Shown here one piece after another: positions 19,098 through 49,244 of a stretch of DNA of 64,000 nt. The notes beneath the pieces were generated by a model, which was not told the origin of the DNA, ran no database searches, and saw nothing but the letters and a program-made list of their open reading frames with translations. The translations under genes and the position numbers were made by a program. Source of the stretch: Desulfuromusa sp. (GTDB lineage Bacteria; Desulfobacterota; Desulfuromonadia; Desulfuromonadales; Geopsychrobacteraceae); the NCBI GenBank assembly GCA_027858895.1, contig JAQIBX010000178.1, positions 193-64,192 on the forward strand, read 5' to 3'. The stretch's first letter is position 1. Each line of letters starts with the position of its first letter.

Positions 19098-22570
<3,473 letters not shown>

Positions 22571-34098: not shown

Positions 34099-34168
34099 CT
34101 ACCGGAAAATGAACAGCTAGAGCCTTAGACTAGACAAGTTAAGCATTACAATCAATTTTTGGGCCAGC

Positions 34169-34204
34169 AAAGGATCTTCACCTTATTGCAGATGAAGATC
34201 CTTT
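34169..34204 (-). other. 12-bp perfect hairpin between the mini-lipoprotein gene and the EamA gene
   Basis: aaaggatcttca-N12-tgaagatccttt. No clear U-run follows on the minus strand, so it could be an attenuator or a stability element. Confidence 0.35.
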
Positions 34205-34221
34205 GTGGATCATGGGTAAGA

Positions 34222-34359
34222 TTAACGGCCGGGTTCTTGGTGCTCTTGGGCATCAAAGACCTGGCCACAGGAAGGACACTTAACCATGTGTGGTGTTGCG
34301 CAGGCTGATAGTGCAAAAGCCATAACCAACAGAATTCCCCAAATTTTAATTTTCTTCAT
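34222..34359 (-). CDS. 45-aa putative lipoprotein with a CxxC knuckle
   Basis: MKKIKIWGILLVMAFALSAC (signal peptide plus lipobox LSAC) followed by ATPHMVKCPSCGQVFDAQEHQEPGR. A strong RBS AAAGGAGAAAAACC precedes ATG 34359. Confidence 0.6.
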   Translation of the reverse strand: MKKIKIWGILLVMAFALSACATPHMVKCPSCGQVFDAQEHQEPGR

Positions 34360-34624
34360 GGTTTTTCTCCTTTTAGTGAGGGTTTCTCTTTTGAGCTGAT
34401 AATGAACAATCAACCCGAAACAGACCTATTTAGCTGAGCCGGAAAATCCAGTCATTTGTCAAATTACAGTTCTTACAGCCTGAAACTTTGACTACTTTTA
34501 CTCAGCTTGAAAGTTATTCTAAAGAAATTGATGGTGCAGGAATGTAAGCCGGGAGACAATCTGAGGGATTTTTTATTTTATGCGAAAAAAGGGATATAAA
34601 GCAGTCGATCAATAGAACTCAGAA

Positions 34625-35299: not shown

Positions 35300-35829
35300 T
35301 AGGTCCTCACAGATTCCAAGTAGCTTAGAGCAATCATATCAGCATCCTTAATAACAACAAGGGGAAAACAGCTAAGTCTCATCCCGAGGATCGGCTCTTA
35401 CAATTTCCAAACTAAGGAACAGGCTTTTTGGTCGATAAGTTTGACTTGGTCGTATTGATTGGGTTTCTACGCAGACCCGCTAAATAAATAGCCATGCTGA
35501 AGTGCTTATCATTCCCGCCAATACATGACAAAAAAGGTCGGTATTCCGCTGTTCAATGTGCTATATTCCACAGAACAGGCTTTTAATCTTTCAAAGAGTT
35601 CCTTAACGGACTGTTTTTATTTGAATAAAAAGTTGGCAGATGGTTGATAAATAAGTTTGTCAAGTTTAATAAGCATACAATACAAACTTGCCTAAACTAC
35701 GAAAAGGGGTTGTTTACAATTCCTGTCATGCGCGGATGGAACTTTGGCCGCCAAAGGACGTCTTATTTGTATCCTGGGGCACAGAGATGAATTGCGTACT
35801 CAGGTTAACTGTTATTGAAGGGGGAAAAT

Positions 35830-36651
35830 ATGCGTTCTATTCCCAAAATTTTATTCATCACGATCCTTCTGTTGATCGTTAGCACCAACGTTTACGCTGC
35901 GCCGAAAGCTGAACTCTGGCCGCGCTGGCAGGTAAACGCTGCGCCGAGCAGTGTCCGCGTCGACCACTCCGCCTGGGCACAATTTCTGGATAAATACTTA
36001 GTTGTCGGCAAGGTCGGGTCAGCAAACCTGGTTCGCTATGCCGAGGTCAGTTCTGCGGATAAAGACTCTCTCGCACAATACCTTACCGAACTGAGCGCCG
36101 TGCCGATGTCAAAACTCAACCGCGCCGAACAAAAATCTACCTGGATCAATCTCTACAATGCCCTGACCGTCCATACGATTCTTGACCACTATCCGGTCAA
36201 GAGCATCCGGGATATCAGCTCTGGTTGGTTCAGCGGTGGCCCCTGGGATTTGAAACTGGTCAGAGTGGAAGAAATCGAACTGTCTCTCAACGATATCGAG
36301 CATCGTATTCTGCGGCCGATCTGGCAGGACAACCGGGTCCACTATGCCGTGAATTGTGCCAGTCTGGGCTGCCCGAATCTACAGTCGGAACCCTTCACCG
36401 CCGAAAACAGCGAACGGCTACTCACAGAAGCTGCCCGCGATTTTATTAATAGTCCTCGCGGAGTTGATATTAACGACAAGCGTCTGCTTCTTTCAAGTAT
36501 CTACGAATGGTTTCAGGTCGATTTTGGTGCTTCTGAGACGGCCCTGCTAAGTCATCTTGAACGGTTTGCTGCGGCCGATTTAGCTGCTAATTTGAAGAAT
36601 TATCGAGGGACTATTTCCTATCAGTACAACTGGGACTTAAACAAAGAATAG
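35830..36651 (+). CDS. Secreted DUF547-domain protein
   Basis: Signal peptide MRSIPKILFITILLLIVSTNVYA. Contains WINLYNALTV and HYAVNCASLGCPNL, which I recall as typical of DUF547. Confidence 0.7.
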   Translation: MRSIPKILFITILLLIVSTNVYAAPKAELWPRWQVNAAPSSVRVDHSAWAQFLDKYLVVGKVGSANLVRYAEVSSADKDSLAQYLTELSAVPMSKLNRAEQKSTWINLYNALTVHTILDHYPVKSIRDISSGWFSGGPWDLKLVRVEEIELSLNDIEHRILRPIWQDNRVHYAVNCASLGCPNLQSEPFTAENSERLLTEAARDFINSPRGVDINDKRLLLSSIYEWFQVDFGASETALLSHLERFAAADLAANLKNYRGTISYQYNWDLNKE

Positions 36652-36687
36652 ATTGTTAGTTCAAACCTTACTCCGGAGTTTTCACCC

Positions 36688-38070
36688 ATGGATTACTACC
36701 TCCCGGTTTTCGCCGGTGTCATCGCCCTGGCCTCAGTCATCCTCGCACCTAAGGCTGAAAATGCAGGTGCTTTTTTTCAAGGGCTTAGTGCGACAGGGCG
36801 ACAGCCTGGTTTGCTGGCTCTCACCCTTTCTCAGGTGACCACCTGGATCTTTGCCCGTTCGCTGATGAACGCCGCGATCCTTGGTTTCTATTATGGAATC
36901 TGGGGCACTTTGGCCTACGCCTTTTACTATTTTTCTTTTTTGACAGGGGGAAGGATCGTTGACAGCCTGCGTTTTGAGCATGGCTGCAGCAGCGTTCAGG
37001 ATTTCCTGCGCAACCGGTTCGGCCACTGGGGGACCGGCTGCTACAATTTTGTCATCGGCATTCGATTGATTAGTGAGGTCTTCGCAAACCTGCTGGTTAT
37101 CGGTATCCTTTTCGGCGTCGCTGGCAGCACCGCTTACACCTGGACGATTCTCGCCTTCTCAGCCATTACCCTCTTCTATTCAATGCTCGGTGGTCTGCGC
37201 GCTTCGTTGCGCACCGATGTGTTTCAAATGGTGATCTTTCTCGGCACCCTGATACTGCTGATTGCGCTGGTCGTTTTCAATCAAAATATCTCTTTAGGTG
37301 ATCTCGCCTTTAAGCCCTTTGTCTTCGATCAGCCCGGGCCGATTTTGATGCTGGTCGCATTGTTGCAAGTCTGGAGCTACCCGATGCACGACCCGGTGAT
37401 GATGGATCGCGGCTTTCTCGCTGACCGTGAGACGACACGCAAGAGTTTTCAACACGCCGCCTGGATCAGCATCATCTGCATTGTCGCCTTCGGTTGCCTT
37501 GGTGTCCTGGCTGGTGCGCATGCGGTTAAGGGGGCAAGCATGAACGAGACCCTGATCCTTCTGCTGGGAACGGCACCGATGATGCTCTTCAATGCTGCGC
37601 TGGTGATTTCGGCCATGTCGACTCTCGACAGCACCCTGTCGAGTTCGGCTAAACTGCTGGCGGTTGATATGGCTGTGATGAAGATGAGTCTGCGCAACGG
37701 CCGCGCGGTGATGGCGGCGTTCATGTTGATCGGGCTCATGCTGGTTTTCTGGGGGAACAAGGATCTGTTCAGCGCGGTAGCTGTCAGCGGCACCGCCTCG
37801 CTCTATCTGGCACCGGTGATCTTCTTCTCCCTCTGGGGCAAGCGCGACAATATTCCGCTCTGGAGTTACCTGTTCAGTTTTGTACTGGCGATTGCCGCCG
37901 CAGCTCTCTACTTTACTGAGTCGAGCGGCTACAGCCAACTCCTCGGCGATGCGCACAAGTACACCAAGTTGCTCTATCTGACCGTTAGCGTACTCGGTCT
38001 CGGCTGCCTAGGTTTCTGGCTGGGCGGGAAAACCACGCCACAGGCGGAACAAAAGGATCAGATTGCATGA
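36688..38070 (+). CDS. Sodium:solute symporter (SSS)-like polytopic membrane protein
   Basis: 460 aa with about 12-13 TM helices and the motif MLGGLRASLRTDVFQ, reminiscent of the SSS family. The substrate is unknown. Confidence 0.5.
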   Translation: MDYYLPVFAGVIALASVILAPKAENAGAFFQGLSATGRQPGLLALTLSQVTTWIFARSLMNAAILGFYYGIWGTLAYAFYYFSFLTGGRIVDSLRFEHGCSSVQDFLRNRFGHWGTGCYNFVIGIRLISEVFANLLVIGILFGVAGSTAYTWTILAFSAITLFYSMLGGLRASLRTDVFQMVIFLGTLILLIALVVFNQNISLGDLAFKPFVFDQPGPILMLVALLQVWSYPMHDPVMMDRGFLADRETTRKSFQHAAWISIICIVAFGCLGVLAGAHAVKGASMNETLILLLGTAPMMLFNAALVISAMSTLDSTLSSSAKLLAVDMAVMKMSLRNGRAVMAAFMLIGLMLVFWGNKDLFSAVAVSGTASLYLAPVIFFSLWGKRDNIPLWSYLFSFVLAIAAAALYFTESSGYSQLLGDAHKYTKLLYLTVSVLGLGCLGFWLGGKTTPQAEQKDQIA

Positions 38071-38951
38071 GTGAATCGGCCCAACCCTTGGATCTTGGAC
38101 GGTTGAGCGGGCCGGTGCTGGTTTTCGGTGGCCCCTACAGTAATCTGGCCGCCACCCGGGCGATGCGGCAGCGGGCTGATGATCTGCAGATTCCCTCAGC
38201 GCAAGTCATCTGTACGGGTGATGTGATCGCCTACTGCGCGGAACCGCAGGAAACTCTGCAACTGATTCGCAACTGGGGAATTTCTGTGGTACAGGGCAAT
38301 TGCGAAGAGTCGCTGGGGGCTGATGCTCCCGACTGCGGCTGCGGTTTTGCAGAGGGGACAACCTGCTCACTGCTCTCGGTGGAATGGTACCAGTACGCCA
38401 CCCGCAAGATCTCGACCGATGACCGGGTCTGGATGCAGAACTTGCCCAGATCGATAACCTTCAAGTTGGCCGGTCGCACCCTCAAAGTCGTCCACGGTGG
38501 CGTCAACCAGAATAACCGTTTTATCTTTCCCTCAACCCCGGAGGCGGTGAAGCGCGAGGAATTGGATCTGGCCGACAGCGACATCTTGATTGGTGGACAC
38601 AGCGGCATCCCCTGGGGGCAGAAAATTGATCAGCGGGTCTGGCTTAACTCCGGAGTCATCGGCCTTCCCGCCAACGATGGCACCCCGGACGGATGGTTTC
38701 TGCTGCTTAGCCCAGAGAGGGGTGACATCCGTTGCAACTGGCAGCGGTTAAGCTATGCGGCCGTTCAAGCTGGCCACAATATGTGTGAAGCCGGATTACA
38801 GTCGGGCTATGCCAAAACGCTGGTGACCGGTCTTTGGCCCAGCATGGATGTCCTTCCTGTTGCCGAGAGGAGCCGGCGTGGAAAAGCCATCGTAATGGAA
38901 GATTTAGTGTACACAGGGCGGAGTTCCTGGGCCCATGATCCGATCATCTAG
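38067..38951 (+). CDS. Cytoplasmic metallophosphoesterase-family protein
   Basis: 294 aa with a calcineurin-like motif series (GDVIAYC, QGNCE, VVHGG, GGHSG). It has a 4-nt overlap with the upstream gene. Confidence 0.65.
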   Translation: MSESAQPLDLGRLSGPVLVFGGPYSNLAATRAMRQRADDLQIPSAQVICTGDVIAYCAEPQETLQLIRNWGISVVQGNCEESLGADAPDCGCGFAEGTTCSLLSVEWYQYATRKISTDDRVWMQNLPRSITFKLAGRTLKVVHGGVNQNNRFIFPSTPEAVKREELDLADSDILIGGHSGIPWGQKIDQRVWLNSGVIGLPANDGTPDGWFLLLSPERGDIRCNWQRLSYAAVQAGHNMCEAGLQSGYAKTLVTGLWPSMDVLPVAERSRRGKAIVMEDLVYTGRSSWAHDPII

Positions 38952-39606
38952 ACAGCCTCTAAAAAATGCTTTTGGCTGTCTCTGGCTAGGCCTGTTTTTG
39001 CTGGCCCTAGTGCTCTGGTGGCGCTCGGGCATTGCCTTGACGGCAATCCCGGCTTTGCTTGAACACTGGTTGTCCGAGGTCGGATTGTTCAAGGCTGCGC
39101 TGATTTATATTGTTATCTATGCCGTGCGGCCACTGATTCTTTTTCCTGCAACTCTGTTGACTGTAGCATCAGGCCTGATCTTCGGCCCCTGGCTAGGAAC
39201 CCTCTTTACTATTATTGGTGAAAACGCCAGCGCCAACGTTGGGTTTACTCTAGTTCGCTGGTTTGGCCGAGAAACCGTGGAGGCACATTCAACGGAGTGG
39301 CTTAGCCGGTGGGATGAAAAACTGAAACAGAATGGCATCGTTGCAGTCATGACTATGCGGTTACTTATGTTGCCCTTTGATGCGGTTAACTTTGGCTGCG
39401 GACTGACCGCTATTCGTCATCGCGATTATGCGATCGGTACCTTTACCGGCATTCTCCCTTCGCTGATCGGTTTTGTCCTGCTCGGGGGTGTCGCAGCCTC
39501 GGGAGTACAAAACCGCATCCTGGTGTTGAGTTTGTCTGCCCTTTTTATGTTGCTCGGTTTCGGTTTTGCTCGTTACCTCAAGCGCCGGGAAGTCGCAATT
39601 AAATAA
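38935..39606 (+). CDS. TVP38/TMEM64 (DedA superfamily) membrane protein
   Basis: 223 aa, multi-TM, with DedA/SNARE-associated-like motifs (PATLLTVASGLIFGPWLG). It has a 17-nt overlap with the upstream gene. Confidence 0.7.
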   Translation: MIRSSRQPLKNAFGCLWLGLFLLALVLWWRSGIALTAIPALLEHWLSEVGLFKAALIYIVIYAVRPLILFPATLLTVASGLIFGPWLGTLFTIIGENASANVGFTLVRWFGRETVEAHSTEWLSRWDEKLKQNGIVAVMTMRLLMLPFDAVNFGCGLTAIRHRDYAIGTFTGILPSLIGFVLLGGVAASGVQNRILVLSLSALFMLLGFGFARYLKRREVAIK

Positions 39607-39624
39607 TATTGAAAGAAGATACCC

Positions 39625-40290
39625 ATGAATACCCTGACGGTCCGTAATGTTATTTTTAGAACCGATGAGCTGTTTGAGCTGCAGCTTGAGCGCGGTGACG
39701 TCCAGTTTGAACCGGGTGCCTGTGTGGCACTATTTAGCAATAGCACTGAATCGCGTCCCTACAGCATTGCCGCTGGAACAGGGGAAGAGATTCTGCGTTT
39801 CCTGATCCGACGGGTTTCAAACGGCATCGTCAGCAATTGGCTGGCACAGCGTAAGCCGGGGGATAAGGTATCGGCCAGCGCACCTTTCGGCTGGTTCCGG
39901 CCCGGTCGCGCCGTCGCCGGGACACGTAGCGTTTTTATTGCCACCGGAACCGGCATCGCCCCCTTTTTGAGCTACCTCCGCAGTAACCCTCAACGTCTGC
40001 CAGAACTCTGCCTCTATGGAGTGCGTCGGCAGACGGAAGCTTTCAACCTTGAAGAACTACAGCAGATCGATAATTTTCGTCTGGCTCTGTCCCAGGAAGA
40101 AGTCAACGGCCACTTTCATGGGCGTATCACCGGACTGCTGGAACAGATCCCTTTTGCAGATGACATCCACTATTATCTTTGCGGACTCGATACCATGATC
40201 GACGAAACCAGCATTTGGCTGGAAAATCATGGTGTCGCCTACACGCAAATTCACCGGGAGATCTTTTTTTATGAAGATGGACAACTCTAA
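39625..40290 (+). CDS. Ferredoxin-NADP reductase-like FAD/NAD(P)-binding oxidoreductase
   Basis: 221 aa with RPYSIA (the RxYS FAD motif) and ATGTGIAPFLSY (NAD(P) motif). Confidence 0.75.
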   Translation: MNTLTVRNVIFRTDELFELQLERGDVQFEPGACVALFSNSTESRPYSIAAGTGEEILRFLIRRVSNGIVSNWLAQRKPGDKVSASAPFGWFRPGRAVAGTRSVFIATGTGIAPFLSYLRSNPQRLPELCLYGVRRQTEAFNLEELQQIDNFRLALSQEEVNGHFHGRITGLLEQIPFADDIHYYLCGLDTMIDETSIWLENHGVAYTQIHREIFFYEDGQL

Positions 40291-41182
40291 CCAATGGCAT
40301 TGTACCAGTCAGAATGAACCACGCGGTTATATCCAGCCGCAAAGTCTTGATGAACTCTGGTTTCATGCTGGAACCAACTGCAACCTGCGCTGCCCTTTTT
40401 GTCTTGAAGGATCTAAGCCGGGGGACAATCGCATTGAATTTCTGACCCTGACTGACGCCCGGCGTTTTATGGATGAAGCGCTGGAGTTTGGGGTTAAAAA
40501 GTTCTCTTTCACTGGCGGCGAACCCTTCGTCAATCCCGAGTTCATTCAGATTCTCGACTATGCCTTGGAGCTCCGCCCCTGTCTGGTATTGACTAACGCC
40601 ACCGAACCGCTGATGAATCAAATTGGCGATGTGCTCCCTTTGCTGGACAGGCCGAACTCTTTAAACTTCCGGGTCAGTCTCGATCACCCGGATCCGGTCA
40701 AACATGACGAATCGCGCGGGCGGGGGAACTTTAGAAAAGCCCTCGCCACACTGGGACGCCTTTATCGGGAGGGCTTCGGCGTGTCGATTGCCCGACTGAT
40801 GCTGTCCGGCGAAGACAGTGCCACCGTGGATTGCGCCTATACCCCCTATTTCGAATCCGCCGGAGTACCGCTCGACCTGACGATCATCAAATTCCCCGAT
40901 TTTCATCTGCCCGGCTCTCTCCCCCAGGTTGCGGAGATCACTGAAACCTGCATGACCCGCTATTTAAGTGCCGAACAGCGTGATAAATTCATGTGCAACT
41001 TCAGCAAGATGATCGTCAGGAAGAATGGTCAATGCGGGGTCTACGCCTGTACCTTGGTCGATGATGTCGAAAACTACGATCTTGGCAAAACCCTGCACGA
41101 AGCGATGGAAAAACGTGTTCTGTTGGGACATCATCGCTGTTACTCCTGTTTTGCCGGTGGTGCCAGTTGCTCTGAGGGGTGA
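40271..41182 (+). CDS. Radical SAM enzyme with a Cys-rich C-terminal domain (possibly ArsS/TIGR04167-like)
   Basis: CNLRCPFC is the CX3CX2C motif, and GGEPF is also present. The C-terminal Cys cluster reads CGVYACTLVDD...HHRCYSCFAGGASCSEG. The start (ATG 40271 or 40277) overlaps the upstream stop. Confidence 0.75.
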   Translation: MKMDNSNQWHCTSQNEPRGYIQPQSLDELWFHAGTNCNLRCPFCLEGSKPGDNRIEFLTLTDARRFMDEALEFGVKKFSFTGGEPFVNPEFIQILDYALELRPCLVLTNATEPLMNQIGDVLPLLDRPNSLNFRVSLDHPDPVKHDESRGRGNFRKALATLGRLYREGFGVSIARLMLSGEDSATVDCAYTPYFESAGVPLDLTIIKFPDFHLPGSLPQVAEITETCMTRYLSAEQRDKFMCNFSKMIVRKNGQCGVYACTLVDDVENYDLGKTLHEAMEKRVLLGHHRCYSCFAGGASCSEG

Positions 41183-41300
41183 GCTGGAACCAACTCAGTT
41201 TTTCAGAGAGGGCACGTCTGACCTTCTAGAGTCTTAGGCGAGCCATTGTAGTGCTGCTTGTTGACAACCAAAAAGAAGACATGATAGGTTATGTTTAAAT

Positions 41301-41318
41301 AAACCGAACGGTCTGTTT
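41301..41318. promoter_or_regulatory. Candidate TetR operator (imperfect palindrome)
   Basis: AAACCGAACGGTCTGTTT is self-complementary at 14 of 18 positions. It lies 17 nt upstream of the tetR ATG and downstream of a TTGACA (41261-41266). Confidence 0.3.
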
Positions 41319-41334
41319 TTTTGGAGGCAAGGTT

Positions 41335-41934
41335 ATGGCAACAAAAGGTGAACAAACCAGAGAAAAAATACTGAAAGAGGCCAATCAGGTATTTAAGTGC
41401 AAAGGCTTTGGTGCAACCACGATCAACGACCTTCTTGCCGCTTCAGGGACAACAAAAGGAAATCTTTATTTTCATTTTTCCGACAAGGAAGCCATTGGTT
41501 TAGAAGTCCTTAGAGGCGAACAGCAATCGTTTTACCGGTTCCTTGAGCAAGCTTTTCAAGGGAAATCACCAGCTGCGGGTCTGGATAATTTTTTTCAAAA
41601 AGCGCTGGAAAAACAATCTCGTCAAGGTTTTGTCGGTGGTTGTTTGTTTGGTAATACAGCTCTCGAAACCAGTGATACGGCGCCGGTTTTCGCCGGTCTG
41701 GTTCAGGAGGTTTTCGCCGAATGGATTAGAAAGTTTGAGCAGCAAATTACCTTAGCCCAGGGTGTTGAACAGATCCGCACCGATGTCTCGGCCGGTGAAC
41801 TTGCCGAAATGGTGGTCGCAACAATTGAAGGGGGCATTATGCAATCTCGATTACAGAAATCCGAAACACCCTTAAAACGCTCTCTGGAGACCTTGAGAAA
41901 GGTTCTGGAGCTGAAGACACAACCTCATAATTAA
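41335..41934 (+). CDS. TetR/AcrR-family transcriptional regulator
   Basis: 199 aa with an N-terminal HTH (FKCKGFGATTINDLLAASGTTKGNLYFHF). Confidence 0.9.
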   Translation: MATKGEQTREKILKEANQVFKCKGFGATTINDLLAASGTTKGNLYFHFSDKEAIGLEVLRGEQQSFYRFLEQAFQGKSPAAGLDNFFQKALEKQSRQGFVGGCLFGNTALETSDTAPVFAGLVQEVFAEWIRKFEQQITLAQGVEQIRTDVSAGELAEMVVATIEGGIMQSRLQKSETPLKRSLETLRKVLELKTQPHN

Positions 41935-41954
41935 TTTATAGAAAGGGCATCATC

Positions 41955-42482
41955 ATGGCACGAATTTCAATGGTTGAGCCAACCTCGGCCGATAGTCAGG
42001 TACAGGAACTGTTCGCAGAAATTAACGCAGCTTTTGGCCGGATCCCCAATTTATTCAAAGTTTATGCTCATCACCCACCGCTTCTGGAAGCGAACTGGCA
42101 TAAGGTTAAACGGGTGATGATGGAGGGGGTTTTACCCCGAAAAGTGAAAGAATCGATCGCTGTTTTGGTCTCGATGGATAATAGCTGTAGCTATTGCATT
42201 GCTGCTCATGAAGGAGCATTGCAGAGCATCGGGATTTCATCTGAAGAGATTCAGATGATTAAAACTGATCTTGATAGTGCTGACTTTACCGAGAAGGAAA
42301 AAGCCCTCATCAAGTTCGCGCGTAAGGCAAACTCTGCCCCTTTACAAGTGACCGATGAAGAAGTTGGAATCGCCCGTACCGCTGGGGCAACAGATGCAGA
42401 ACTTGTTGAGGCTCTGGGAGTTATGGAGGTTTTCACCGCATTTAACAAATTTTTAGATACTCTTCAGGTTGAACTTGGATAA
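41955..42482 (+). CDS. Carboxymuconolactone decarboxylase / AhpD-like family protein
   Basis: 175 aa with the CxxC-type motif NSCSYCIAAHEG. Confidence 0.75.
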   Translation: MARISMVEPTSADSQVQELFAEINAAFGRIPNLFKVYAHHPPLLEANWHKVKRVMMEGVLPRKVKESIAVLVSMDNSCSYCIAAHEGALQSIGISSEEIQMIKTDLDSADFTEKEKALIKFARKANSAPLQVTDEEVGIARTAGATDAELVEALGVMEVFTAFNKFLDTLQVELG

Positions 42483-42511
42483 CGGTGTAACAATTTCTAA
42501 AAGGCAAAGTT

Positions 42512-44653
42512 ATGAATAGTCGTACTACCAAAATAAGTATTCTAGCGGTCATTGTTGTCCTGGTTGCCAGTTTTTTCATCTTTGATCTGGGGCAATATTT
42601 GACTTTGGGTTATCTCAAAAGCCAGCAACAGGTCTTTAATGACTATTATCAGCAGAACCGGTTTTCGACCTTGCTGATTTATTTTGTTATTTACATCCTG
42701 GTCACGGCTATGTCTCTGCCGGGGGCAGCAGTGATGACCCTTGCCGGTGGAGCACTGTTTGGCCTCTGGACCGCTGTGGTTGTGGTCAGCTTTGCCAGCA
42801 GCATCGGTGCAACTCTGGCATTTTTGGTTTCGCGTTTTCTGTTGCGCGATTGGGTGCAAGGAAAGTTCGGCGATAAGTTGCAGGCAATCAACGATGGGGT
42901 AGAGAAAGAAGGCGCCTTCTACCTTTTTTCTCTCCGTCTGGTTCCCCTGTTTCCGTTTTTTGTCATCAATCTGGTGATGGGACTGACACCGCTCAAAACC
43001 TCTCTTTATTACATTGTCAGCCAGGTTGGGATGTTGGCTGGAACCTTTGTTTACGTCAATGCTGGAACCCAGATCGGCCAACTTGAAAGTGCCGGTGGCA
43101 TTCTGTCTCCCGGTCTTTTGATCTCTTTTGCCCTGCTTGGCATATTTCCTCTCCTCGCAAAGCGGATTCTTGGGGTTTTCCAAGCGCGAAAAGTTTTTGC
43201 CGGGCATCAAAAACCGCAAAAGTTTGACTATAATTTGGTGGTACTGGGTGCCGGAAGTGGTGGTTTGGTCAGTTCTTATATCGCAGCAGCCGTCAAAGCA
43301 AAAGTGGCATTGATTGAAAAGCACAAGATGGGTGGCGATTGTCTTAACACCGGTTGTGTTCCGAGCAAGGCTCTGCTGCGGAGCGCCAAGATGCTCTCTT
43401 ATGCAAAACGGGCCAAGGAATTTGGTTTTGAAAAGACCGAGGTAGAATTCGATTTTGCCAAGGTCATGGAGCGGGTACAGCAGAAAATCGATCAGATAGA
43501 GCCACATGATTCGGTAGAGCGCTATACCAGTCTCGGCGTTGAGGTGATTGAAGGGGAAGCAAAAATAACCTCTCCCTGGACAGTTGAAGTCAACGGGAAA
43601 ACCTTATCGACCCGAAGCATTATTATCGCCACAGGAGCAAAACCCTTTGTTCCACCGATCAAAGGATTGGATCAAATTGATTATCTGACCTCAGATAATT
43701 TGTGGTCACTGCGGGAGCTTCCGGGAAAACTGGTTGTGCTGGGCGGTGGACCGATTGGTAGTGAGATGACTCAGGCGTTTGCCCGGTTGGGGAGTCAAGT
43801 GACACAGGTTGAAATGGGCTCCCGTATCGTTGGGCGTGAAGACCCTGAGGTCGGTGATTTTATTCAGCAGAAATTTGAAGAGGATGGAGTTCAGGTTCTG
43901 ACCGAACACCAGGCGCAAGAAGTACGGGTTGATAGCGATCACAAATGGTTGGTGTGTGAACATCGTGGGGAGAAAATTGAAATTGAATTTGATCAGCTCC
44001 TGATTGCGGTTGGTCGTAAAGCAAATGTGACCGGGTTCGGGTTGGAAGAGCTGGGTGTTGAGATTGCCCCACGTGGAACCGTTGTCAGCGATCCTTTTCT
44101 GCGGACGAACTTCCCCAATATCTTATGTGCTGGGGATGTCACTGGTCCTTATCAGTTCACCCATACTGCTGCACATCAGGCCTGGTATGCTGCGGTTAAT
44201 GCTTTGTTTGGACAGTTCAAGAGTTTTAAGGTCGACTACCGGGTAATTCCCTGGTGCACCTTTACCGATGCTGAAGTTGCCAGGGTCGGTCTCAATGAAA
44301 CAGAAGCAAAAGAACAGGGAATCCCGTTTGAAATTACTCGCTACGGAATTGACGATCTAGACCGGGCGATTGCCGACAGTGAAGATCATGGTTGGGTCAA
44401 GATCCTCACCAAGCCAGGGTCTGATAAGATTCTAGGTGTGACAATCGTTGGTACTCACGCTGGAGATCTACTCGCAGAGTATGTCCTGGCGATGAAGTAT
44501 AAGCTCGGTCTGAATAAAATTCTCGGGACGATTCATACCTATCCGACTCTATCCGAGATGAATAAATATGCTGCCGGTGAATGGAAGCGGGCGCATACTC
44601 CAGAAAAGCTTCTCGGCTGGGTAGAAAAATATCATACTTGGCGCAGAGGATAA
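42512..44653 (+). CDS. Fusion of a TVP38/DedA membrane domain with a class-I pyridine nucleotide-disulfide oxidoreductase (MerA/Lpd-like)
   Basis: The N-terminal ~230 aa are multi-TM. They are followed by VVLGAGSGG, the redox-active disulfide GGDCLNTGCVPSK, a second dinucleotide fold VVLGGGPIGSE and a dimerisation-domain HTYPT-type ending. Confidence 0.8.
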   Translation: MNSRTTKISILAVIVVLVASFFIFDLGQYLTLGYLKSQQQVFNDYYQQNRFSTLLIYFVIYILVTAMSLPGAAVMTLAGGALFGLWTAVVVVSFASSIGATLAFLVSRFLLRDWVQGKFGDKLQAINDGVEKEGAFYLFSLRLVPLFPFFVINLVMGLTPLKTSLYYIVSQVGMLAGTFVYVNAGTQIGQLESAGGILSPGLLISFALLGIFPLLAKRILGVFQARKVFAGHQKPQKFDYNLVVLGAGSGGLVSSYIAAAVKAKVALIEKHKMGGDCLNTGCVPSKALLRSAKMLSYAKRAKEFGFEKTEVEFDFAKVMERVQQKIDQIEPHDSVERYTSLGVEVIEGEAKITSPWTVEVNGKTLSTRSIIIATGAKPFVPPIKGLDQIDYLTSDNLWSLRELPGKLVVLGGGPIGSEMTQAFARLGSQVTQVEMGSRIVGREDPEVGDFIQQKFEEDGVQVLTEHQAQEVRVDSDHKWLVCEHRGEKIEIEFDQLLIAVGRKANVTGFGLEELGVEIAPRGTVVSDPFLRTNFPNILCAGDVTGPYQFTHTAAHQAWYAAVNALFGQFKSFKVDYRVIPWCTFTDAEVARVGLNETEAKEQGIPFEITRYGIDDLDRAIADSEDHGWVKILTKPGSDKILGVTIVGTHAGDLLAEYVLAMKYKLGLNKILGTIHTYPTLSEMNKYAAGEWKRAHTPEKLLGWVEKYHTWRRG

Positions 44654-44723
44654 TTTCCGCCAGGTTATAAATCCGCAGAAAAAGAATCAACATTTTTCAA
44701 AACTATTTTCACAGGAGTTACCA

Positions 44724-45185
44724 ATGAAACAATTAAGTTTATTGCTCGTATTGTGTTTTGTCCTCATCAGCACTTCCACCGTTTTGGCTGCAGATGGTCT
44801 TACTTCTCTCAAAAGTTCTTATTCTCCAGCGGAAACCATGAATCGTTTTGAAGCCATTGCCAAGCAAAAAGGGTTGAATATTTTTGCCCGCATCAATCAC
44901 ACTGCCGGCGCCGCGAAGATAGGGAAAACCCTGCGTCCGACTGAAGTATTGATCTTCGGTAACCCTCAGGGAGGTACCCCGTTTATTGAGTGCGCTCAGA
45001 CGGTCGGAATCGATTTGCCACTCAAGGTTCTTGTCTGGGAAGACGCTGACGGGCAGGTGTGGCTTGGATATAACGATCCGGTTTATCTGGCACAGCGGCA
45101 TGGAGTTGCGCAATGTCCGGCAGCTGGGAAGCTCGGTAAGGCTCTGGCTGGACTATCAAAAGCTGCTCTGATGGTAGAAAAGTGA
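44724..45185 (+). CDS. Secreted DUF302-domain protein
   Basis: Signal peptide, then a DUF302-like core (VLIFGNPQGGTPFI..DLPLKVLVWED). Confidence 0.65.
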   Translation: MKQLSLLLVLCFVLISTSTVLAADGLTSLKSSYSPAETMNRFEAIAKQKGLNIFARINHTAGAAKIGKTLRPTEVLIFGNPQGGTPFIECAQTVGIDLPLKVLVWEDADGQVWLGYNDPVYLAQRHGVAQCPAAGKLGKALAGLSKAALMVEK

Positions 45186-45550
45186 TAAAAACCATCTGGG
45201 GTTTTATCTTCCTGCTTTTTTTGGTATTTCCCGCTCTGCTTTTCGCTGGTGAAGCGGATGTCATCAGAGTCGAGGTTGATAAGTCCGGCAGTGTGTATAA
45301 TTTTAACGTGACGGTTAAACACGGCGATGAAGGTTGGCAACATTATGCCAACAAGTGGGATGTTGTCAGCCCCGCTGGTCAAGTGCTGGGAACCCGGGTT
45401 CTCTACCATCCACATGTCAACGAACAACCCTTTACCCGCAGCCTGTCAGGGGTTGCTATCGATGCGGGAATAAGTTCAGTGATTATCCGTGCCTACGATC
45501 TGGTGCATGGCTACGGCGGAGCAGAAATGAGTGTCGAATTGCCCAGATAA
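45182..45550 (+). CDS. Secreted hypothetical protein, no recognisable family
   Basis: 122 aa with a signal peptide and His-rich motifs (KHGDEGWQHY, YHPHVNEQPF). The GTG start overlaps the DUF302 stop (GTGA). Confidence 0.55.
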   Translation: MIKTIWGFIFLLFLVFPALLFAGEADVIRVEVDKSGSVYNFNVTVKHGDEGWQHYANKWDVVSPAGQVLGTRVLYHPHVNEQPFTRSLSGVAIDAGISSVIIRAYDLVHGYGGAEMSVELPR

Positions 45551-45592
45551 AACTTATATTCGGGGGCTTGAAATGAAAATCCGGATCAGCCT

Positions 45593-46714
45593 ATGAAACT
45601 GTTTTTTTTGCTATTCCTGGCCACCTATGGTGGCATGCATGCCTTGGTCTTCTGGGGCTTTCACCCTCTACTCAAGGGACACCCGGCCCTTCCGTCTTTG
45701 ACCTGGATCTGGATGGTGGGGATGATCGCTGCTCCCCTGCTGGTCAGACTCTGTGATCGATCCGGATTAGAAGCCTTGGCTCGTGGTCTCGCCTGGGTTA
45801 GTTATAGCTGGATGGGGGTGGTTTTTATCGCCTTCAGTCTGTTTACCTTGGTCGGGCTCTGGGAGTTGATGGTTCGCTTGGCGAACCGGCTGTTGCCGCA
45901 ACTGCCGAACCTTTCCCTGCACGGAGCAGTGACGGCGACCGTGGTTCTGTTTGTCGTTATTGCTGCCAGCTTTTATGGAATCTACGAAGCGAACAACCTG
46001 CGGATCGAGCGGATACGAATTGTTACCCCGCGACTGCCATCCGGCACAGCACCGATCCGCATTGCACAAGTTTCTGACCTCCATCTCGGGTTGATTCATC
46101 GGGACGAGGCCTTGGCACCAATTGTCAGCCGACTTCAGGATCTTCAGCCCGATCTGCTGGTTGCCACCGGGGATATCGTCGATGCTCAACTTAACCACTT
46201 GGATGAGCTGGTGGAACTCTGGCAGCGCATTGATCCACCGCTCGGCAAATATGCTGTCACAGGCAATCATGAATATTATGCAGGTCTTGATCAGGCGCTA
46301 GATTTTCTGCGCCGCAGTGGCTTTAAGGTGTTGCGCAACCGCGATATGAAGGTCGGGGAGTGGCTCAAGGTGGTCGGGGTTGATGATCCGGCGCGGCGCG
46401 GCATCCCCGATGAAGACGGGGCATTAGGTGAACGTTCAGAACTGTTCACCTTACTGCTTAAACATCGCCCGGACTTTGTAGAGACCTCACTGGGAAAATT
46501 CGACCTGCAGCTCTCGGGGCATGCTCACCGAGGTCAGATGTTTCCATTCAACCTGCTGACCGCCATTAAGCACCCGCGGCAGAACGGTCTCTACCCGTTA
46601 GCAAGCGGCCAGGACCTCTACGTAAGCCGTGGCACCGGCACTTGGGGCCCACCGATGCGGATTCTTTCGCCACCGGAGATAACTCTGTTCGAAATTGTTC
46701 CAGAAACGCCCTGA
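45593..46714 (+). CDS. Membrane-anchored metallophosphoesterase
   Basis: About 4 N-terminal TM helices, then the motifs DLHLG, GDIVD, GNHEYY and GHAHRG. Confidence 0.8.
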   Translation: MKLFFLLFLATYGGMHALVFWGFHPLLKGHPALPSLTWIWMVGMIAAPLLVRLCDRSGLEALARGLAWVSYSWMGVVFIAFSLFTLVGLWELMVRLANRLLPQLPNLSLHGAVTATVVLFVVIAASFYGIYEANNLRIERIRIVTPRLPSGTAPIRIAQVSDLHLGLIHRDEALAPIVSRLQDLQPDLLVATGDIVDAQLNHLDELVELWQRIDPPLGKYAVTGNHEYYAGLDQALDFLRRSGFKVLRNRDMKVGEWLKVVGVDDPARRGIPDEDGALGERSELFTLLLKHRPDFVETSLGKFDLQLSGHAHRGQMFPFNLLTAIKHPRQNGLYPLASGQDLYVSRGTGTWGPPMRILSPPEITLFEIVPETP

Positions 46715-46735
46715 TCCTTCCAAGGACAGTCACAA

Positions 46736-46777
46736 ACCTGAAAAGGCCCCGATCTTATGATCGAGGCCTTTTCAGGT
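46736..46777. terminator. Bidirectional terminator hairpin between convergent genes
   Basis: acctgaaaaggcc...ggccttttcaggt is a 13-bp outer stem with an inner cgatc/gatcg stem. Confidence 0.65.
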
Positions 46778-46799
46778 TTAGCGTTAGAGGAAGGGGATA

Positions 46800-49244
46800 C
46801 TAAAGCTTTTCTTCCATATCCAAACGGAAAAAATCTCGCGCTTTTAGTTGTTTATCGCTACTCATTCTGGTAGGAGCGGTGCCTGGGGCAAAGACTTCGA
46901 AATAAGCCAGTTCGCTGTCGTCTGCCAGAAGCAGCCCATTCTCCTTGTCGATTGGATGAAACTCAATACTATCGGGAACATGAAAATTTTCCACCGGGTA
47001 TTGTTTGGCGGCTTCTTTCATAAAGTCAACCCAGGCAGGTGCTGCAGCTCGCGAGCCGGTCTCACTTTTTCCCAGTGGCCGTTCCTGATCGTAGCCGACC
47101 CAGGAAACACAGGCAAGTTGCGGGATAAAACCAATATACCAGGCATCTTTCAAGTCGTTGGTGGTACCGGTTTTCCCCGCTGAAGGACGCTTAATTGCCT
47201 TGGCTCGCCAGCCGGTTCCTTCCCTGACGACGCTTTCCATGATATTGGTGATCAGGTATGCAGTTTCCGGTGAGATCACCCGCCGTGGTGGCTTACGGAT
47301 CAGGTGCTGATCAGCTGCCATGCCATTGACAAAGTCAGCTGGATCGATCGATTCCAGAATCCGACCGTTTCTGTCACGAATTCTCGTGATATAGGTTGGT
47401 GGTACCAGCACCCCCCCGTTAGCAAAAACAGTATAAGCTGTCAGCAGCTCCAGTGGAGTGATGGCAGTTGATCCAAGAGCCATGGACAGATCTCTCTGTT
47501 GAGGCGTTTCAACACCAAGTTTTTTGATATAGTTAGCTGCATAGTTGACCCCGATATCTTCCAGAATTTTGATCGTCACGACATTGCGTGAATGAGCCAA
47601 CGCATAACGGAACCGGGTCGGACCGTAGAACTTTTCTTCGTAGTTTCTTGGTTTCCATTCTTCCAGCTTACCGGTGTCAATTTGTCTGTTTTCGTAGATC
47701 AGTGGCGTATCGAGAATAATGCTGGCAGGGGTATAGCCGCGATCAAGAGCAGCGGCGTAAATCAGCGGTTTAATGGCAGAGCCGGGCAGGCGTTTGGATT
47801 GAATTGCGCGGTTGAACTGACTTTCTTTGAAATCATAACCACCAACCATTGCCTTGATTTGTCCACTAAAGGGGTCGATGGCGACCAACGCTCCCTGTGC
47901 AAGTGGCGCTTGCTCCAGGCTGAGCTTTATCACCTTGGGTTCTAGATCAAGAACTTTGACGTCAATCAGTGAGCCAAGGGGGAACAGAGTCAGTTTCTTC
48001 TCGCCGGCATTGCCAAGGGGTTCGACAGAATCATCGACAAATTTGATTGGTGCTGCCCATTTTGATTCCTTGATCGAAATGGCACCCTGTTTTTCACCAA
48101 TCTTGCAAAGGAGTAGATCCCCTTCTTGTCCGACAATGATCGCTTGCGTGAAGCTGCCATTGGTTAAAGGCTCATCGGTAAATTGCTCCATTTGATTGGT
48201 TAAAAATTCTTCAGTTGCCGTTTCATCAAGAACTTGCTGTGCACCACGGTAGCCACGACGTTTGTCGTGGTTCTGCAAATTATTTTTAACTGCCTGGCGG
48301 GCCACCTGTTGCATCGGCAGATTGATACTGGTTTCAACCTGTAAACCGCCATTATAAAGGAGCTCTTCACCGAAGCGTTCTTCCAGGTAGCGGCGAACCT
48401 GTTCATTGAAGTAAGCAGTGACCTCTAGCAGGTTGTTCAGGCGCGGCTTAATAGCGACTTCTTCCTGAGCTGCCTGGCTATATTCCTCCGGGGTAATGAA
48501 ACCTTCTTCTACCATCCGGCCAAGAACATATTTCTGCCGTTTCATGGCGAGCTCGTAATTGCGATAGGGAGAGTAACGGCTGGGAGCCTGTGGTAATCCC
48601 GCAAGAATAGCCGATTCCGCCAAGGTCAATTCCTCGACATTTTTATCGAAATAGTTTTCCGATGCCGCTTCGACGCCGTAGGCTCGATGGCCAAGATAGA
48701 TCTGATTCAAGTAAAGATAGAGAATATCCTGTTTAGTCAGAGTTTTTTCCATCCGCCAGGCAAGGATTGCTTCTTTAAATTTGCGGGTGAAGGTTCGCTC
48801 TGAGGTCAATAACAACTTTTTTGCAACCTGCTGGGTGATAGTGCTGCCACCCTGAGCAATGCCACCGGCTTTGACATTTTTTAGTGCTGCCCGCAGGATC
48901 GAGATAAAATCGATTCCCTGATGCTTGAAGAAGCTTGAATCTTCGGCCGCAACAAAGGCTTGCACCAGCTGTTTAGGCATCTTTTCGTAGGGCACTAAAA
49001 TACGCCGTTCACGGGAATATTCAGCGATGATAGAACCGTCATCGGCGAAGATACTGGTAATCAGTGGAGGCTGATAATCGGATAGGGTTTCAACCTTTGG
49101 CAGGGTTGTCGAGACGTAAAAATAAGCGCCGACCAAGAGCGCAGCACCAAGCAGGGGCATGCCTAGCAGGAAGAATAAAATATATTTCAAGGAGTGATTC
49201 ATTTTATCTTTTAAGTCGAAAAAGGATAAGTTTTGTTTGAGCAT
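46800..49244 (-). CDS. mrcA: Penicillin-binding protein 1A (bifunctional transglycosylase/transpeptidase)
   Basis: Glycosyltransferase motifs EDSSFFKHQGID and RKFKE, and transpeptidase motifs SAIKP, SRN and KTGTT. An alternative start lies at 49202. Confidence 0.92.
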   Translation of the reverse strand: MLKQNLSFFDLKDKMNHSLKYILFFLLGMPLLGAALLVGAYFYVSTTLPKVETLSDYQPPLITSIFADDGSIIAEYSRERRILVPYEKMPKQLVQAFVAAEDSSFFKHQGIDFISILRAALKNVKAGGIAQGGSTITQQVAKKLLLTSERTFTRKFKEAILAWRMEKTLTKQDILYLYLNQIYLGHRAYGVEAASENYFDKNVEELTLAESAILAGLPQAPSRYSPYRNYELAMKRQKYVLGRMVEEGFITPEEYSQAAQEEVAIKPRLNNLLEVTAYFNEQVRRYLEERFGEELLYNGGLQVETSINLPMQQVARQAVKNNLQNHDKRRGYRGAQQVLDETATEEFLTNQMEQFTDEPLTNGSFTQAIIVGQEGDLLLCKIGEKQGAISIKESKWAAPIKFVDDSVEPLGNAGEKKLTLFPLGSLIDVKVLDLEPKVIKLSLEQAPLAQGALVAIDPFSGQIKAMVGGYDFKESQFNRAIQSKRLPGSAIKPLIYAAALDRGYTPASIILDTPLIYENRQIDTGKLEEWKPRNYEEKFYGPTRFRYALAHSRNVVTIKILEDIGVNYAANYIKKLGVETPQQRDLSMALGSTAITPLELLTAYTVFANGGVLVPPTYITRIRDRNGRILESIDPADFVNGMAADQHLIRKPPRRVISPETAYLITNIMESVVREGTGWRAKAIKRPSAGKTGTTNDLKDAWYIGFIPQLACVSWVGYDQERPLGKSETGSRAAAPAWVDFMKEAAKQYPVENFHVPDSIEFHPIDKENGLLLADDSELAYFEVFAPGTAPTRMSSDKQLKARDFFRLDMEEKL

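Follow-up and report, generated by a model that had tools for sequence, protein, structure and literature searches.

In a 64,000-nucleotide stretch of DNA from Desulfuromusa sp. (GenBank assembly GCA_027858895.1, contig JAQIBX010000178.1, positions 193 to 64,192; hereafter the window), a run of twelve plus-strand genes between positions 35830 and 46714 is centred on a highly conserved, uncurated family of radical S-adenosylmethionine (radical SAM) enzymes and on an FNR-like flavoreductase that is translationally coupled to it. In related genomes, this family is the genomic counterpart of ArsS: it occupies the same slot, lies beside or is fused to the methyltransferase ArsM, and has accessory genes in common with ArsS. 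The cluster is probably an undescribed, membrane-linked system with which anaerobes make or handle organic arsenic compounds. On balance, we lean towards the view that the genes from 35830 to 45550 and a divergent crp gene form one module, centred on the flavoreductase and the radical SAM enzyme, for carbon–arsenic (C–As) chemistry, and we infer that arsenic is its best-supported substrate. A first-pass annotation of the region, made from the sequence alone, had guessed at an envelope-linked redox or metalloid system. The comparison of gene neighbourhoods supports this guess and narrows it, by context, to arsenic; the selenium, tellurium, and lipid-carrier readings of the same annotation received no specific support. 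It had also considered that the cluster could not be mapped to a described pathway, which is correct in that no protein reaches a pathway-specific cut-off, but its context does map to the ArsM/ArsS organoarsenical pathway.

Organoarsenicals, including methylarsenicals, arsenosugars, arsenolipids, and arsinothricin, shape the toxicity and mobility of arsenic. To our knowledge, only two radical SAM routes to C–As bonds are known, ArsS and ArsL, and most work on ArsS has concerned oxygenic phototrophs. The observations reported here point to a further family of this kind, the third, which is highly conserved, swaps with ArsS, fuses with ArsM, and is spread across anaerobic lineages (the Desulfuromonadales, the Lentisphaerota/Verrucomicrobiota/Planctomycetota group, the Hydrogenedentota, and the Omnitrophota). 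A literature search found no description of this family, of its exchange with ArsS, or of a role in arsenic metabolism for DUF547 proteins or for fusions of a DedA domain to a pyridine-nucleotide disulfide oxidoreductase (DedA-PNDR). In other words, the type of system, ArsM with a radical SAM enzyme for C–As bonds, is already known; what is new is the enzyme family, together with its reductase partner and its set of membrane accessory proteins. If the arsenic link is true, a hidden capacity for the synthesis or turnover of organoarsenicals would exist in sediments and aquifers, the settings in which the mobilisation of arsenic is of greatest importance. Several widespread unknowns (DUF547, DedA-PNDR fusions, DUF302, and TIGR04282/TIGR04283) also gain a first functional context. 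Cultured hosts have been identified in Geopsychrobacter electrodiphilus DSM 16401, Desulfuromusa kysingii DSM 7343, and Pelovirga terrestris.

A genomic counterpart of ArsS

The core radical SAM protein (40271–41182, plus strand; 303 amino acids; Pfam Radical_SAM) carries the cluster motif CX3CX2C (CNLRCPFC; C37, C41, and C44), which is invariant in alignments A2 and A5. Six further cysteines (C227, C242, C260, C290, C293, and C300) are invariant in alignment A2, and the C-terminus, HHRCYSCFAGGASCSEG, forms an invariant CX2CX6C motif. Alignment A2 covers identities of 55–83% across phyla, with a mean column identity of 69%. The closest homologues belong to two metagenome-assembled genomes of Desulfuromusa (96% and 94%), D. 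kysingii DSM 7343 (83%), and Pelovirga (77%), and an identity of 54–69% is found in the Lentisphaeria, Verrucomicrobiota, Planctomycetota, Chitinivibrionales, Hydrogenedentota, Omnitrophota, Deferribacteraceae, and others. Among the 1.84 billion representatives searched, the family makes up 73 clusters at E ≤ 1e-30. No curated model claims it, the best NCBIfam scores being 89 bits for Rv1681 (cut-off 380) and 52 bits for ArsS (cut-off 300). The folds nearest to its AlphaFold model (pLDDT 82.6) are those of SkfB, BlsE, and MoaA (TM about 0.55), twitch/SPASM-type enzymes with auxiliary clusters. The fold search returned only generic enzymes of this type, and a sequence search of the PDB returned only generic relatives for this protein and for the Metallophos_2 phosphoesterase of the cluster. 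A role as a peptide maturase, raised by weak matches to SPASM maturases, was put aside: no precursor-like gene recurs beside the enzyme, and its neighbours are small-molecule enzymes.

Gene neighbourhoods were compared in two sets: 72 genome loci of radical SAM orthologues, for which we used our own calling of open reading frames (ORFs), BLAST, and clustering, and 80 metagenome loci from a DUF547-anchored scan. Individual loci are cited by L numbers and fusion proteins by P numbers. The FNR-like gene (39625–40290, plus strand; FAD_binding_6 and NAD_binding_1 by Pfam/NCBIfam), whose 3' end overlaps the start of the radical SAM gene in the window, lies immediately upstream of it in 25 of the 72 loci, in at least five phyla. 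Its product has an RPYS FAD motif and a GTGIAPF NAD(P)H motif and is without a ferredoxin domain; we propose that it is a dedicated electron donor to the radical SAM enzyme.

The strongest argument that this enzyme and ArsS have the same task, or closely related ones, is that the two swap inside a conserved syntenic block. A genuine ArsS gene (L083:5491–6705; TIGR04167 363 bits, cut-off 300) stands third in a block that runs TetR, Crp, ArsS, a cytochrome-P460-like protein, DedA-PNDR, and DUF547. The corresponding block of L078 also includes AhpD, and genes for ArsM and a MIP channel lie downstream of it. The block of L019 and L008 consists of TetR, AhpD, Crp, a radical SAM enzyme of the window type, the cytochrome-P460-like protein, and DedA-PNDR. 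Between L078 and L019, identity in the flanking proteins amounts to 68% (TetR), 78% (AhpD), 78% (Crp), 60% (cytochrome-P460-like), and 78.5% (DedA-PNDR), and the ranges are as follows when all four blocks with ArsS in the middle (L078, L083, L082, and L106) are set against the two with the window family (L019 and L008): 65–68%, 78%, 76–78%, 58–60%, and 77–78%, respectively. The central enzymes share about 25% identity, in the radical SAM core only. The blocks keep their context while one radical SAM enzyme cleanly takes the place of another. ArsS was not found within 10 kb of a window-type radical SAM gene in any of the 72 loci; the 80 DUF547-anchored loci hold genuine ArsS in five cases and the window-type enzyme in four. 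The DedA-PNDR protein of the window is 70% identical to the copy that adjoins ArsS in L083, and AhpD-like orthologues (61–87% identity) occur with both radical SAM types.

ArsM is found beside the radical SAM gene in 13 of the 72 loci (Lentisphaeria, Verrucomicrobiota, Planctomycetota, Chitinivibrionales, Kiritimatiellales, and Opitutales), in the order ArsM–FNR–radical SAM or radical SAM–ArsM, and the radical SAM proteins of these loci are 57–69% identical to that of the window. The methyltransferase is a full-length match to the solved Chlamydomonas ArsM (5EVJ, 370 bits), and each of the four cysteines that bind arsenic is present in it. As a rough expectation, a gene present once per genome should lie within 5 kb of a locus in well under 1% of cases; the observed value for ArsM is 18%. 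In six loci, a fusion of TIGR04282 and TIGR04283 (DUF2064 plus GT2), above both cut-offs, follows the radical SAM and DedA-PNDR genes. NCBI calls these two families "arsenosugar biosynthesis glycosyltransferase".

Fusions independently tie the radical SAM enzyme to ArsM, to the Metallophos_2 enzyme of the window, and to the "arsenosugar" transferase. ArsM precedes the radical SAM part in P0241 and P0255 and follows it in P0245; the radical SAM part of P0241 shares 59% identity with the window protein and has the C-terminal sequence HHRCYVCFSHGSSCSEG. A sister subfamily with 37–39% identity and the C-terminus HPHCxxFCVLGGASC includes P0277 and P0281, in which a Metallophos_2 domain is fused to the radical SAM enzyme; this domain is clearly orthologous to the third gene of the window cluster (shared GGPYSNL, GNCEESL, and DCGCGF). 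In the same subfamily, TIGR04282 (163 bits, cut-off 134) is fused to the radical SAM enzyme in P0282, and P0295 joins the enzyme to an HD_3 phosphohydrolase (HD_3/YfbR-like 5'-deoxynucleotidase domain). A flavoprotein domain (Pyr_redox_3) is the fusion partner in P0308. The last two architectures suggest nucleotide-type intermediates and a built-in supply of electrons.

It should be mentioned that the ArsS genes of L083 (6700–6720), L078, and L088 stop at an in-frame TGA (CxACTAGSGFT-TGA-GG; CFACTAGSGFT-TGA-GG in L083). This is the known selenocysteine position of ArsS, so that gene callers truncate the protein by a few residues.

Could the same machinery act on antimony, selenium, tellurium, or sulfur species and not on arsenic, with the radical SAM enzyme making a C–Se, C–Sb, or C–S bond? 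Methylation by ArsM enzymes extends to Sb(III), and a DedA link to the uptake of selenite has been described, both of which would fit; so would the selenoprotein versions that NCBIfam holds of partner families (AhpD-related, ArsM-fusion, and ArsS models) and the in-frame TGA in the ArsS copies of L078, L083, and L088. On the other hand, the window cluster has no selenium-utilisation genes or SECIS-type features, the ArsS versions include a MIP channel, the classical route of As(OH)3, and the only characterised relatives or analogues (ArsM structures and ArsS) act on arsenic (PMC13598754). We regard this alternative as decidedly unlikely.

Gene content of the module in related genomes

Ten of the twelve window genes, together with crp, recur around the radical SAM orthologues in the 72 loci, in orders that mix the two halves of the cluster, that is, the genes before and after a 152-nucleotide spacer. 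L003 has the order SSS-like, Metallophos_2, FNR-like, radical SAM, DedA-PNDR, and DUF302; in D. kysingii (L014), crp is divergent from DUF547, FNR-like, radical SAM, DedA, DedA-PNDR, DUF302, and the gene for a 122-amino-acid protein. DedA-PNDR directly follows the radical SAM gene in L003, L007, L069, and L070, and L075, from the DUF547-anchored set, matches the window order gene for gene. The isolate G. electrodiphilus (L155) has DedA-PNDR, DUF547, SSS-like, Metallophos_2, Grx, hydrolase-OsmC, FNR-like, and radical SAM genes, and the fullest cluster, in Pontiella (L033), comprises a thioredoxin-like protein, DUF547, radical SAM, methyltransferase, a peroxiredoxin-like protein, DedA, PNDR, and the DUF2064+GT2 fusion. 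Counted over the 72 loci, the partners are methyltransferase (13), thioredoxin/DsbH-like (9), TetR (9), DUF2064+GT2 fusion (6), Crp (5–7), AhpD-like (5–6), DUF547 (5), and DUF302 (5). Because their genes interleave in other genomes, the two halves form one functional module, which, without the twelfth gene, is shuffled across the Desulfuromonadales. The proposed division into two sub-operons thus does not extend to function.

These counts also bear on the view that unrelated small co-directional operons lie side by side by chance, the outcome that the first-pass annotation had named as refuting its proposal. An internal promoter/operator before tetR, a twelfth gene that is not co-conserved, and consensus scans with no enrichment of signals would agree with it, but the joint recurrence of ten genes and crp, with changes of order, extends over dozens of loci from different genera, and that of the core extends across phyla. 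We therefore consider chance adjacency extremely improbable.

In five Omnitrophota loci (L034, L039, L040, L042, and L052), the radical SAM gene is flanked by a split transketolase, transaldolase, and a 6-phosphogluconolactonase/NagB-like gene, followed by thiolase and FadB, and none of the arsenic-linked partners is present. This context may reflect a link to pentose (5-deoxyribose?) metabolism, or only neighbouring operons.

The first gene of the cluster encodes a DUF547 protein with a signal-like N-terminus (35830–36651, plus strand; Pfam 88 bits). Its NCASxGCP motif (CX4C) is invariant, as are C176 and C181 in alignments A1 and A4. The AlphaFold model is well formed by its scores (pLDDT 82.9, pTM 0.83), and Foldseek found no structural match to it in the PDB (best E = 2.7), so that the fold gives no clue to the function. 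DUF547 adjoins DedA/PNDR in 19–24 of the 80 metagenome loci. In one relative (L082:11506–14166), it is fused to a GH15 glucoamylase/trehalase-like domain, and longer DUF547 fusions adjoining PNDR occur in others (L090:5313–6920). Judged by their domains, such fusions hint at sugar-related chemistry.

The distantly SSS-like polytopic membrane protein (36688–38070, plus strand; 460 amino acids; Pfam SSF 27 bits) is a candidate transporter. The start of the next gene, which encodes the cytoplasmic Metallophos_2 phosphoesterase (38067–38951, plus strand; Pfam; GNCE and CGCGF motifs), overlaps its stop. These two genes are always paired, in 10–11 of the 72 loci (Desulfuromonadales only) and also in L081 and G. 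electrodiphilus.

A DedA (VTT) domain occurs twice, as the stand-alone membrane protein of the fourth gene (38935–39606, plus strand; Pfam VTT_dom) and, in the ninth gene, fused to a class-I PNDR with the motif CLNTGC (42512–44653, plus strand; Pfam/NCBIfam). With 84.9 and 73.9 bits against a PF09335 gathering score of 33.9, both are members of the family; stand-alone DedA is also found in L004, L014, and L075. Fused or split DedA/PNDR adjoins the radical SAM gene in 16–17 of the 72 loci, including Pontiella, Deferribacteraceae, and Planctomycetota, and the nearest relatives of the PNDR part in the PDB are MerA and Lpd (about 240–280 bits). The DedA domains share 27% identity over 125 residues in BLASTP and are old paralogues. 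Pairwise comparison of the two phosphoesterases of the cluster gave no significant similarity (E = 0.18), and their subfamilies differ, one being YfcE-like Metallophos_2 and the other LpxG/YaeI-like. A recent duplication of DedA and phosphoesterase modules was rejected by these comparisons, and with it the duplicated modules that the first-pass annotation had described.

The AhpD/CMD-family protein (41955–42482, plus strand; CSYC motif) passes the NCBIfam model TIGR01926, "peroxidase-related enzyme", with 91.8 bits (cut-off 81.8). DedA-PNDR is followed by DUF302 in L003, L005, L007, L014, and L018 as it is in the window, where the DUF302 protein (44724–45185, plus strand; Pfam 82.6 bits) has a signal-like N-terminus and, in the PDB, a match to 7TJ1, a generic relative only. 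Its companion is the signal-bearing protein of 122 amino acids (45182–45550, plus strand; YHPHVNEQPF motif), which has no Pfam, NCBIfam, or PDB match and is restricted in lineage, with homologues only in Desulfuromusa-like loci (L003, L005, L007, and L014). With five histidines, it is hardly the "His-rich" protein that it had been called.

In many Desulfuromonadales versions of the module, an exported protein of the cytochrome P460 family (about 180 amino acids, CINCH haem motif) comes right after the radical SAM or ArsS gene. Its carriers are L008, L010, L019, L032, L075, L083, L078, and L106; the window has no copy. The gene of L075 is placed between those for EamA and Crp, an interval that in the window is a gap of 525 bp (34099–34624).

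The twelfth gene (45593–46714, plus strand; NCBIfam/Pfam Metallophos) encodes a membrane-anchored, LpxG/YaeI-like metallophosphoesterase that scores 104 bits on the NCBIfam LpxG model (cut-off 350) and 71 on YaeI (188). It was rejected as a member of the module, and the claim that all twelve genes belong together falls with it: no homologue is found in the 72 radical SAM and 80 DUF547 loci (152 in total), and in D. kysingii the PBP1A gene stands directly after the gene for the 122-amino-acid protein.

Two further explanations turn on these accessory genes. The first is a general stress module for thiols, oxidants, or electrophiles (peroxides, reactive chlorine or sulfur species, electrophiles) under an AcuR-like, electrophile-sensing TetR, in which the radical SAM pair would be separate or serve in repair. 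The AhpD score above the cut-off of a "peroxidase-related" model, a PNDR that reaches 219–230 bits on the models of RclA and hypothiocyanous-acid reductase, AcuR as the best match of TetR, Grx and OsmC in the G. electrodiphilus cluster, peroxiredoxin-like and thioredoxin-like neighbours in other phyla, and a window with no arsenic-specific gene all speak for it. However, the stress-enzyme scores of PNDR are all far under the cut-offs (650–740), and such a module would leave unexplained the translational coupling of the radical SAM gene inside the cluster, the swap of ArsS and the radical SAM enzyme in one slot, the joining of ArsM, MIP, and TIGR04282/TIGR04283 to module genes, and the fusions of ArsM, Metallophos_2, and TIGR04282 to the radical SAM enzyme. 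We hold it to be unlikely. The second is a modification of envelope lipids or glycans, in which DedA would flip polyprenyl-phosphate or a lipid-linked sugar, GT2/DUF2064 would build the sugar, the phosphoesterases would trim it, the radical SAM enzyme would modify it, and the ArsM-like proteins would be ordinary methyltransferases. It draws on the two DedA domains, the weak match of the split DedA of L057 to UptA (35 bits), the LpxG/YaeI-like twelfth gene, the GH15+DUF547 and GT-DUF547 associations and the membrane GT2 after the radical SAM gene in relatives, and the pentose-phosphate genes of the Omnitrophota. The methyltransferase nevertheless keeps the four arsenic-binding cysteines and the C-terminal domain of ArsM, the exchange with ArsS points to arsenic chemistry, and the twelfth gene is not co-conserved; moreover, the proposal is compatible with an arsenosugar or arsenolipid product, which makes it partly a sub-case of the organoarsenical module. 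As a separate explanation, it is quite improbable.

Layout, regulation, and flanks of the window cluster

The ORF listing with translations has all twelve plus-strand ORFs of 35830–46714, and the co-directional run with its overlaps and short gaps is as first described. The intergenic gaps measure 18–70 nucleotides, apart from the 152-nucleotide spacer before tetR, and four gene pairs overlap (38067/38070, 38935/38951, 40271/40290, with the radical SAM start taken at 40271, and 45182/45185). For DUF547, the start at 35830 (an ATG behind GGGGG) is preferred over the mechanical TTG at 35815. Pfam and NCBIfam scans reproduced the domain calls for all twelve proteins, and the CLNTGC and CSYC redox motifs and the signal-like N-terminal segments can be seen in the translations. 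The check by hidden Markov models placed none of the twelve in a characterised pathway: no pathway-specific equivalog was reached in Pfam or NCBIfam, and only TIGR01926 and generic domains passed their cut-offs.

Three antisense ORFs of 164–321 amino acids, 37294–37956, 42542–43507, and 40127–40621 (all minus strand), lie over the SSS-like, DedA-PNDR, and FNR/radical SAM genes. Because they have no family support and their translations are of low complexity and rich in Arg, His, and Gln, these ORFs most probably do not code for proteins and only shadow the genes on the sense strand.

The divergent regulator (34625–35299, minus strand; Pfam cNMP_binding and HTH_Crp_2) is separated from the first module gene by a control region of 530 bp (35300–35829). 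It had been called CRP/FNR-type; it does belong to the Crp family, but its translation has no FNR-type N-terminal cysteine cluster. Crp homologues adjoin the radical SAM or ArsS gene in L004, L008, L010, L012, L013, L014, L019, L020, L075, L078, L082, L083, and L106. The TetR-family regulator (41335–41934, plus strand; Pfam TetR_N and TetR_C_13), with AcuR as its best NCBIfam match, has counterparts in nine radical SAM loci and in the ArsS loci L078, L082, L083, and L106.

The spacer before tetR (41183–41334, plus strand) contains a promoter-like site, TTGACA-N18-TAGGTT, and an 18-bp near-palindrome, AAACCGAACGGTCTGTTT (window 41255–41325). Both are kept in L005 and L006, and the 5' part and remainder of the spacer are not, which makes a separate regulation of the second half of the cluster plausible; at the level of regulation only, therefore, the two sub-operons proposed earlier may stand. 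The near-palindrome is a putative TetR operator and, as such, could serve to find the inducing ligand. An Rfam scan of 34000–47500 found no riboswitch, and consensus scans for promoters and terminators gave fewer sites than the shuffled expectation.

Between the twelfth gene and the convergent PBP1A gene (ORF 46800–49244; Pfam), a hairpin (46730–46786; hairpin-type chance matches in Rfam, on both strands) probably serves as a bidirectional terminator and marks the end of the cluster. Housekeeping genes flank the cluster on both sides, with TrmO, EamA, and aconitase upstream and PBP1A, FolE2, and Tol-Pal downstream.

Elsewhere in the window (16200–20200), dnaA (16424–17764), dnaN (17974–19089), and recF (19098–20171) form a sharply bounded block of 16–30% GC, with a third-position GC of 0.08–0.16 and a FYMINK share of 42–56%, in a genome of about 47% GC; gyrB, immediately downstream of recF, has a third-position GC of 0.39. 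The minimum of the cumulative GC skew and a switch in gene strand coincide with the block. It is not an artefact of the window, because several public assemblies contain the same DnaN, RecF, and GyrB proteins, and from its composition it looks as if copies from a donor of very high AT content had replaced the core replication genes.

Proposed chemistry and comparison with known systems

In the organoarsenical reading, a trivalent arsenical (arsenite or methylated As(III)) would be captured on cysteines, possibly including those of the invariant C-terminal CX2CX6C triad of the radical SAM enzyme. The FNR-like protein would pass electrons from NAD(P)H to the [4Fe-4S] cluster, and a SAM-derived radical would form the C–As bond on the thiol-bound As(III) species. 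The Metallophos_2 enzyme and the SSS-like permease might then process and move a nucleoside-like product, intermediate, or precursor, and DedA-PNDR, the second DedA, the cytoplasmic AhpD-like protein, and the exported DUF547, DUF302, and 122-amino-acid proteins might hold arsenic–thiol species in the reduced state and convey them through the membrane or along it, with TetR and Crp controlling expression. Because the window is without arsM, the TIGR04282/TIGR04283 transferases, and an aquaporin, the Desulfuromusa version would be either a trimmed pathway that works on arsenite or imported methylarsenicals or one that relies on genes elsewhere in the genome.

Several points weigh against this reading. 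The radical SAM protein scores 52.4 bits on the ArsS model TIGR04167 (relatives 46–47; cut-off 300), has no match to DUF3641 (PF12345) at E ≤ 0.01, a domain that all ArsS homologues carry, and aligns to the ArsS profile in hhalign over 138 core columns only (columns 29–172), which do not include the C-terminal domain. A tblastn search of the 64-kb window found no ArsM, TIGR04282/TIGR04283 transferase, MIP channel, or thioredoxin-like partner, and ArsM, TIGR04282/TIGR04283, and MIP are absent from every Desulfuromonadales locus with the window-type radical SAM enzyme. No canonical ars resistance genes were found among the larger flanking ORFs scanned, small ORFs not having been searched for ArsR or ArsC. 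Eighteen of the 32 well-flanked loci are without any arsenic-linked partner (for example, Omnitrophota with pentose-phosphate genes, and Hydrogenedentota), and genuine ArsS often stands with a small CMD protein only, without DedA-PNDR or DUF547. The names of TIGR04282 and TIGR04283 rest on co-occurrence with ArsS and not on assays. Because membership in ArsS fails and the window is without ArsM, glycosyltransferase, and aquaporin, it is from context that we infer a role in arsenic chemistry, the reaction itself, and the functions of the accessory proteins, and the last holds for DedA-PNDR, DUF547, DUF302, SSS-like, and Metallophos_2 alike.

A further point concerns electron balance. ArsS adenosylates DMAs(III) to DDMAA (PMC13598754; PMC12159101), and its catalysis is redox-neutral (PMC13598754), whereas the window enzyme has a dedicated reductase, which hints that its chemistry may differ. 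It is possible, though doubtful, that the enzyme carries out another, net-reductive reaction on arsenic (formation of a trivalent adenosyl-arsenical, direct adenosylation of unmethylated arsenite, or anaerobic cleavage of C–As bonds), and that DedA-PNDR, DUF547, DUF302, and SSS-like/Metallophos_2 form an unrecognised membrane pathway for the trafficking of arsenic–thiol species or arsenonucleosides in anaerobes. Such a reaction would explain why this radical SAM enzyme alone has a dedicated NAD(P)H-dependent reductase.

Among known systems, MerA, Lpd, GR, and RclA share with the PNDR part of the ninth gene the CxxxxC redox disulfide and the FAD, NAD(P)H, and dimerisation domains, and the best PDB match is mercuric reductase (278 bits). 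The window protein falls below the MerA cut-off (TIGR02053 398 bits, cut-off 454), has no NmerA domain and no C-terminal cysteine pair (it ends EKYHTWRRG), and carries an N-terminal VTT/DedA membrane domain instead. Its split orthologues belong to the uncharacterised subfamily NF004991 (744 bits, cut-off 620). For the radical SAM enzyme, the best curated model is that of the Rv1681 (MoeX) family, NF049973, for the window protein and all relatives alike, in the core only; with 76–105 bits against a cut-off of 380, none is a member.

The ArsL/ArsM/ArsQ cluster for arsinothricin offers a parallel in layout: a noncanonical radical SAM enzyme with a C-terminal cysteine motif makes a C–As bond with an ACP group, and its gene stands beside those of a methyltransferase and a permease (PMC8552651; bioRxiv 10.1101/2024.02.01.577332). 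No sequence relationship to the window cluster was detected, the permease is of another type, and the ArsM-like neighbours of the window relatives score 162 on the arsinothricin ArsM model (cut-off 500). The arsenosugar clusters (cyanobacterial ArsM/ArsS; TIGR04167, TIGR04169, TIGR04282, TIGR04283, and NF038099) have a recurring set of methyltransferase, radical SAM enzyme, AhpD-like protein, two transferases, and phosphoesterase. Relatives of the window cluster carry TIGR04282/TIGR04283 above the cut-off and full-length ArsM, and the window carries neither; its AhpD-like protein scores 24.8 bits on TIGR04169 (cut-off 120) and is a member of TIGR01926 instead. The window adds DedA, DedA-PNDR, DUF547, SSS-like, DUF302, and FNR-like proteins, none of which has a described arsenosugar role.

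The closest likeness is to ArsS itself. The two enzymes differ in that the window protein has cysteine in place of selenocysteine and a translationally coupled FNR-like reductase, whereas the ArsS loci are without a dedicated one. They have in common the CX3CX2C radical SAM core. Their cysteine-rich C-termini resemble each other at the level of motifs, without support from the profile alignment: HHRCYSCFAGGASCSEG (CX2CX6C) in the window and EHCYACTAGSGFT-U-GG (CX2CX7U) in ArsS, the terminal motifs reading CYSCFAGGASC and CYACTAGSGFTU, respectively. The layout of the cysteines is parallel (MC..C..CxxC..C/U, at similar spacing), with C242, C260, C290, C293, and C300 in the window enzyme and C256, C271, C307, C310, and U318 in ArsS. 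Judged from these sequences, the family would be a distant paralogue or an analogue of ArsS and not a member of it. Linkage to ArsM, not seen in the window or the Desulfuromonadales, is found for the orthologues both as adjacency (13 of 72 loci) and as fusion (P0241, P0245, and P0255), and ArsM adjacency is likewise seen for ArsS. Finally, the two enzymes keep the same company, namely AhpD-like, TetR, Crp, cytochrome-P460-like, DedA-PNDR, DUF547, and TIGR04282/TIGR04283 genes.

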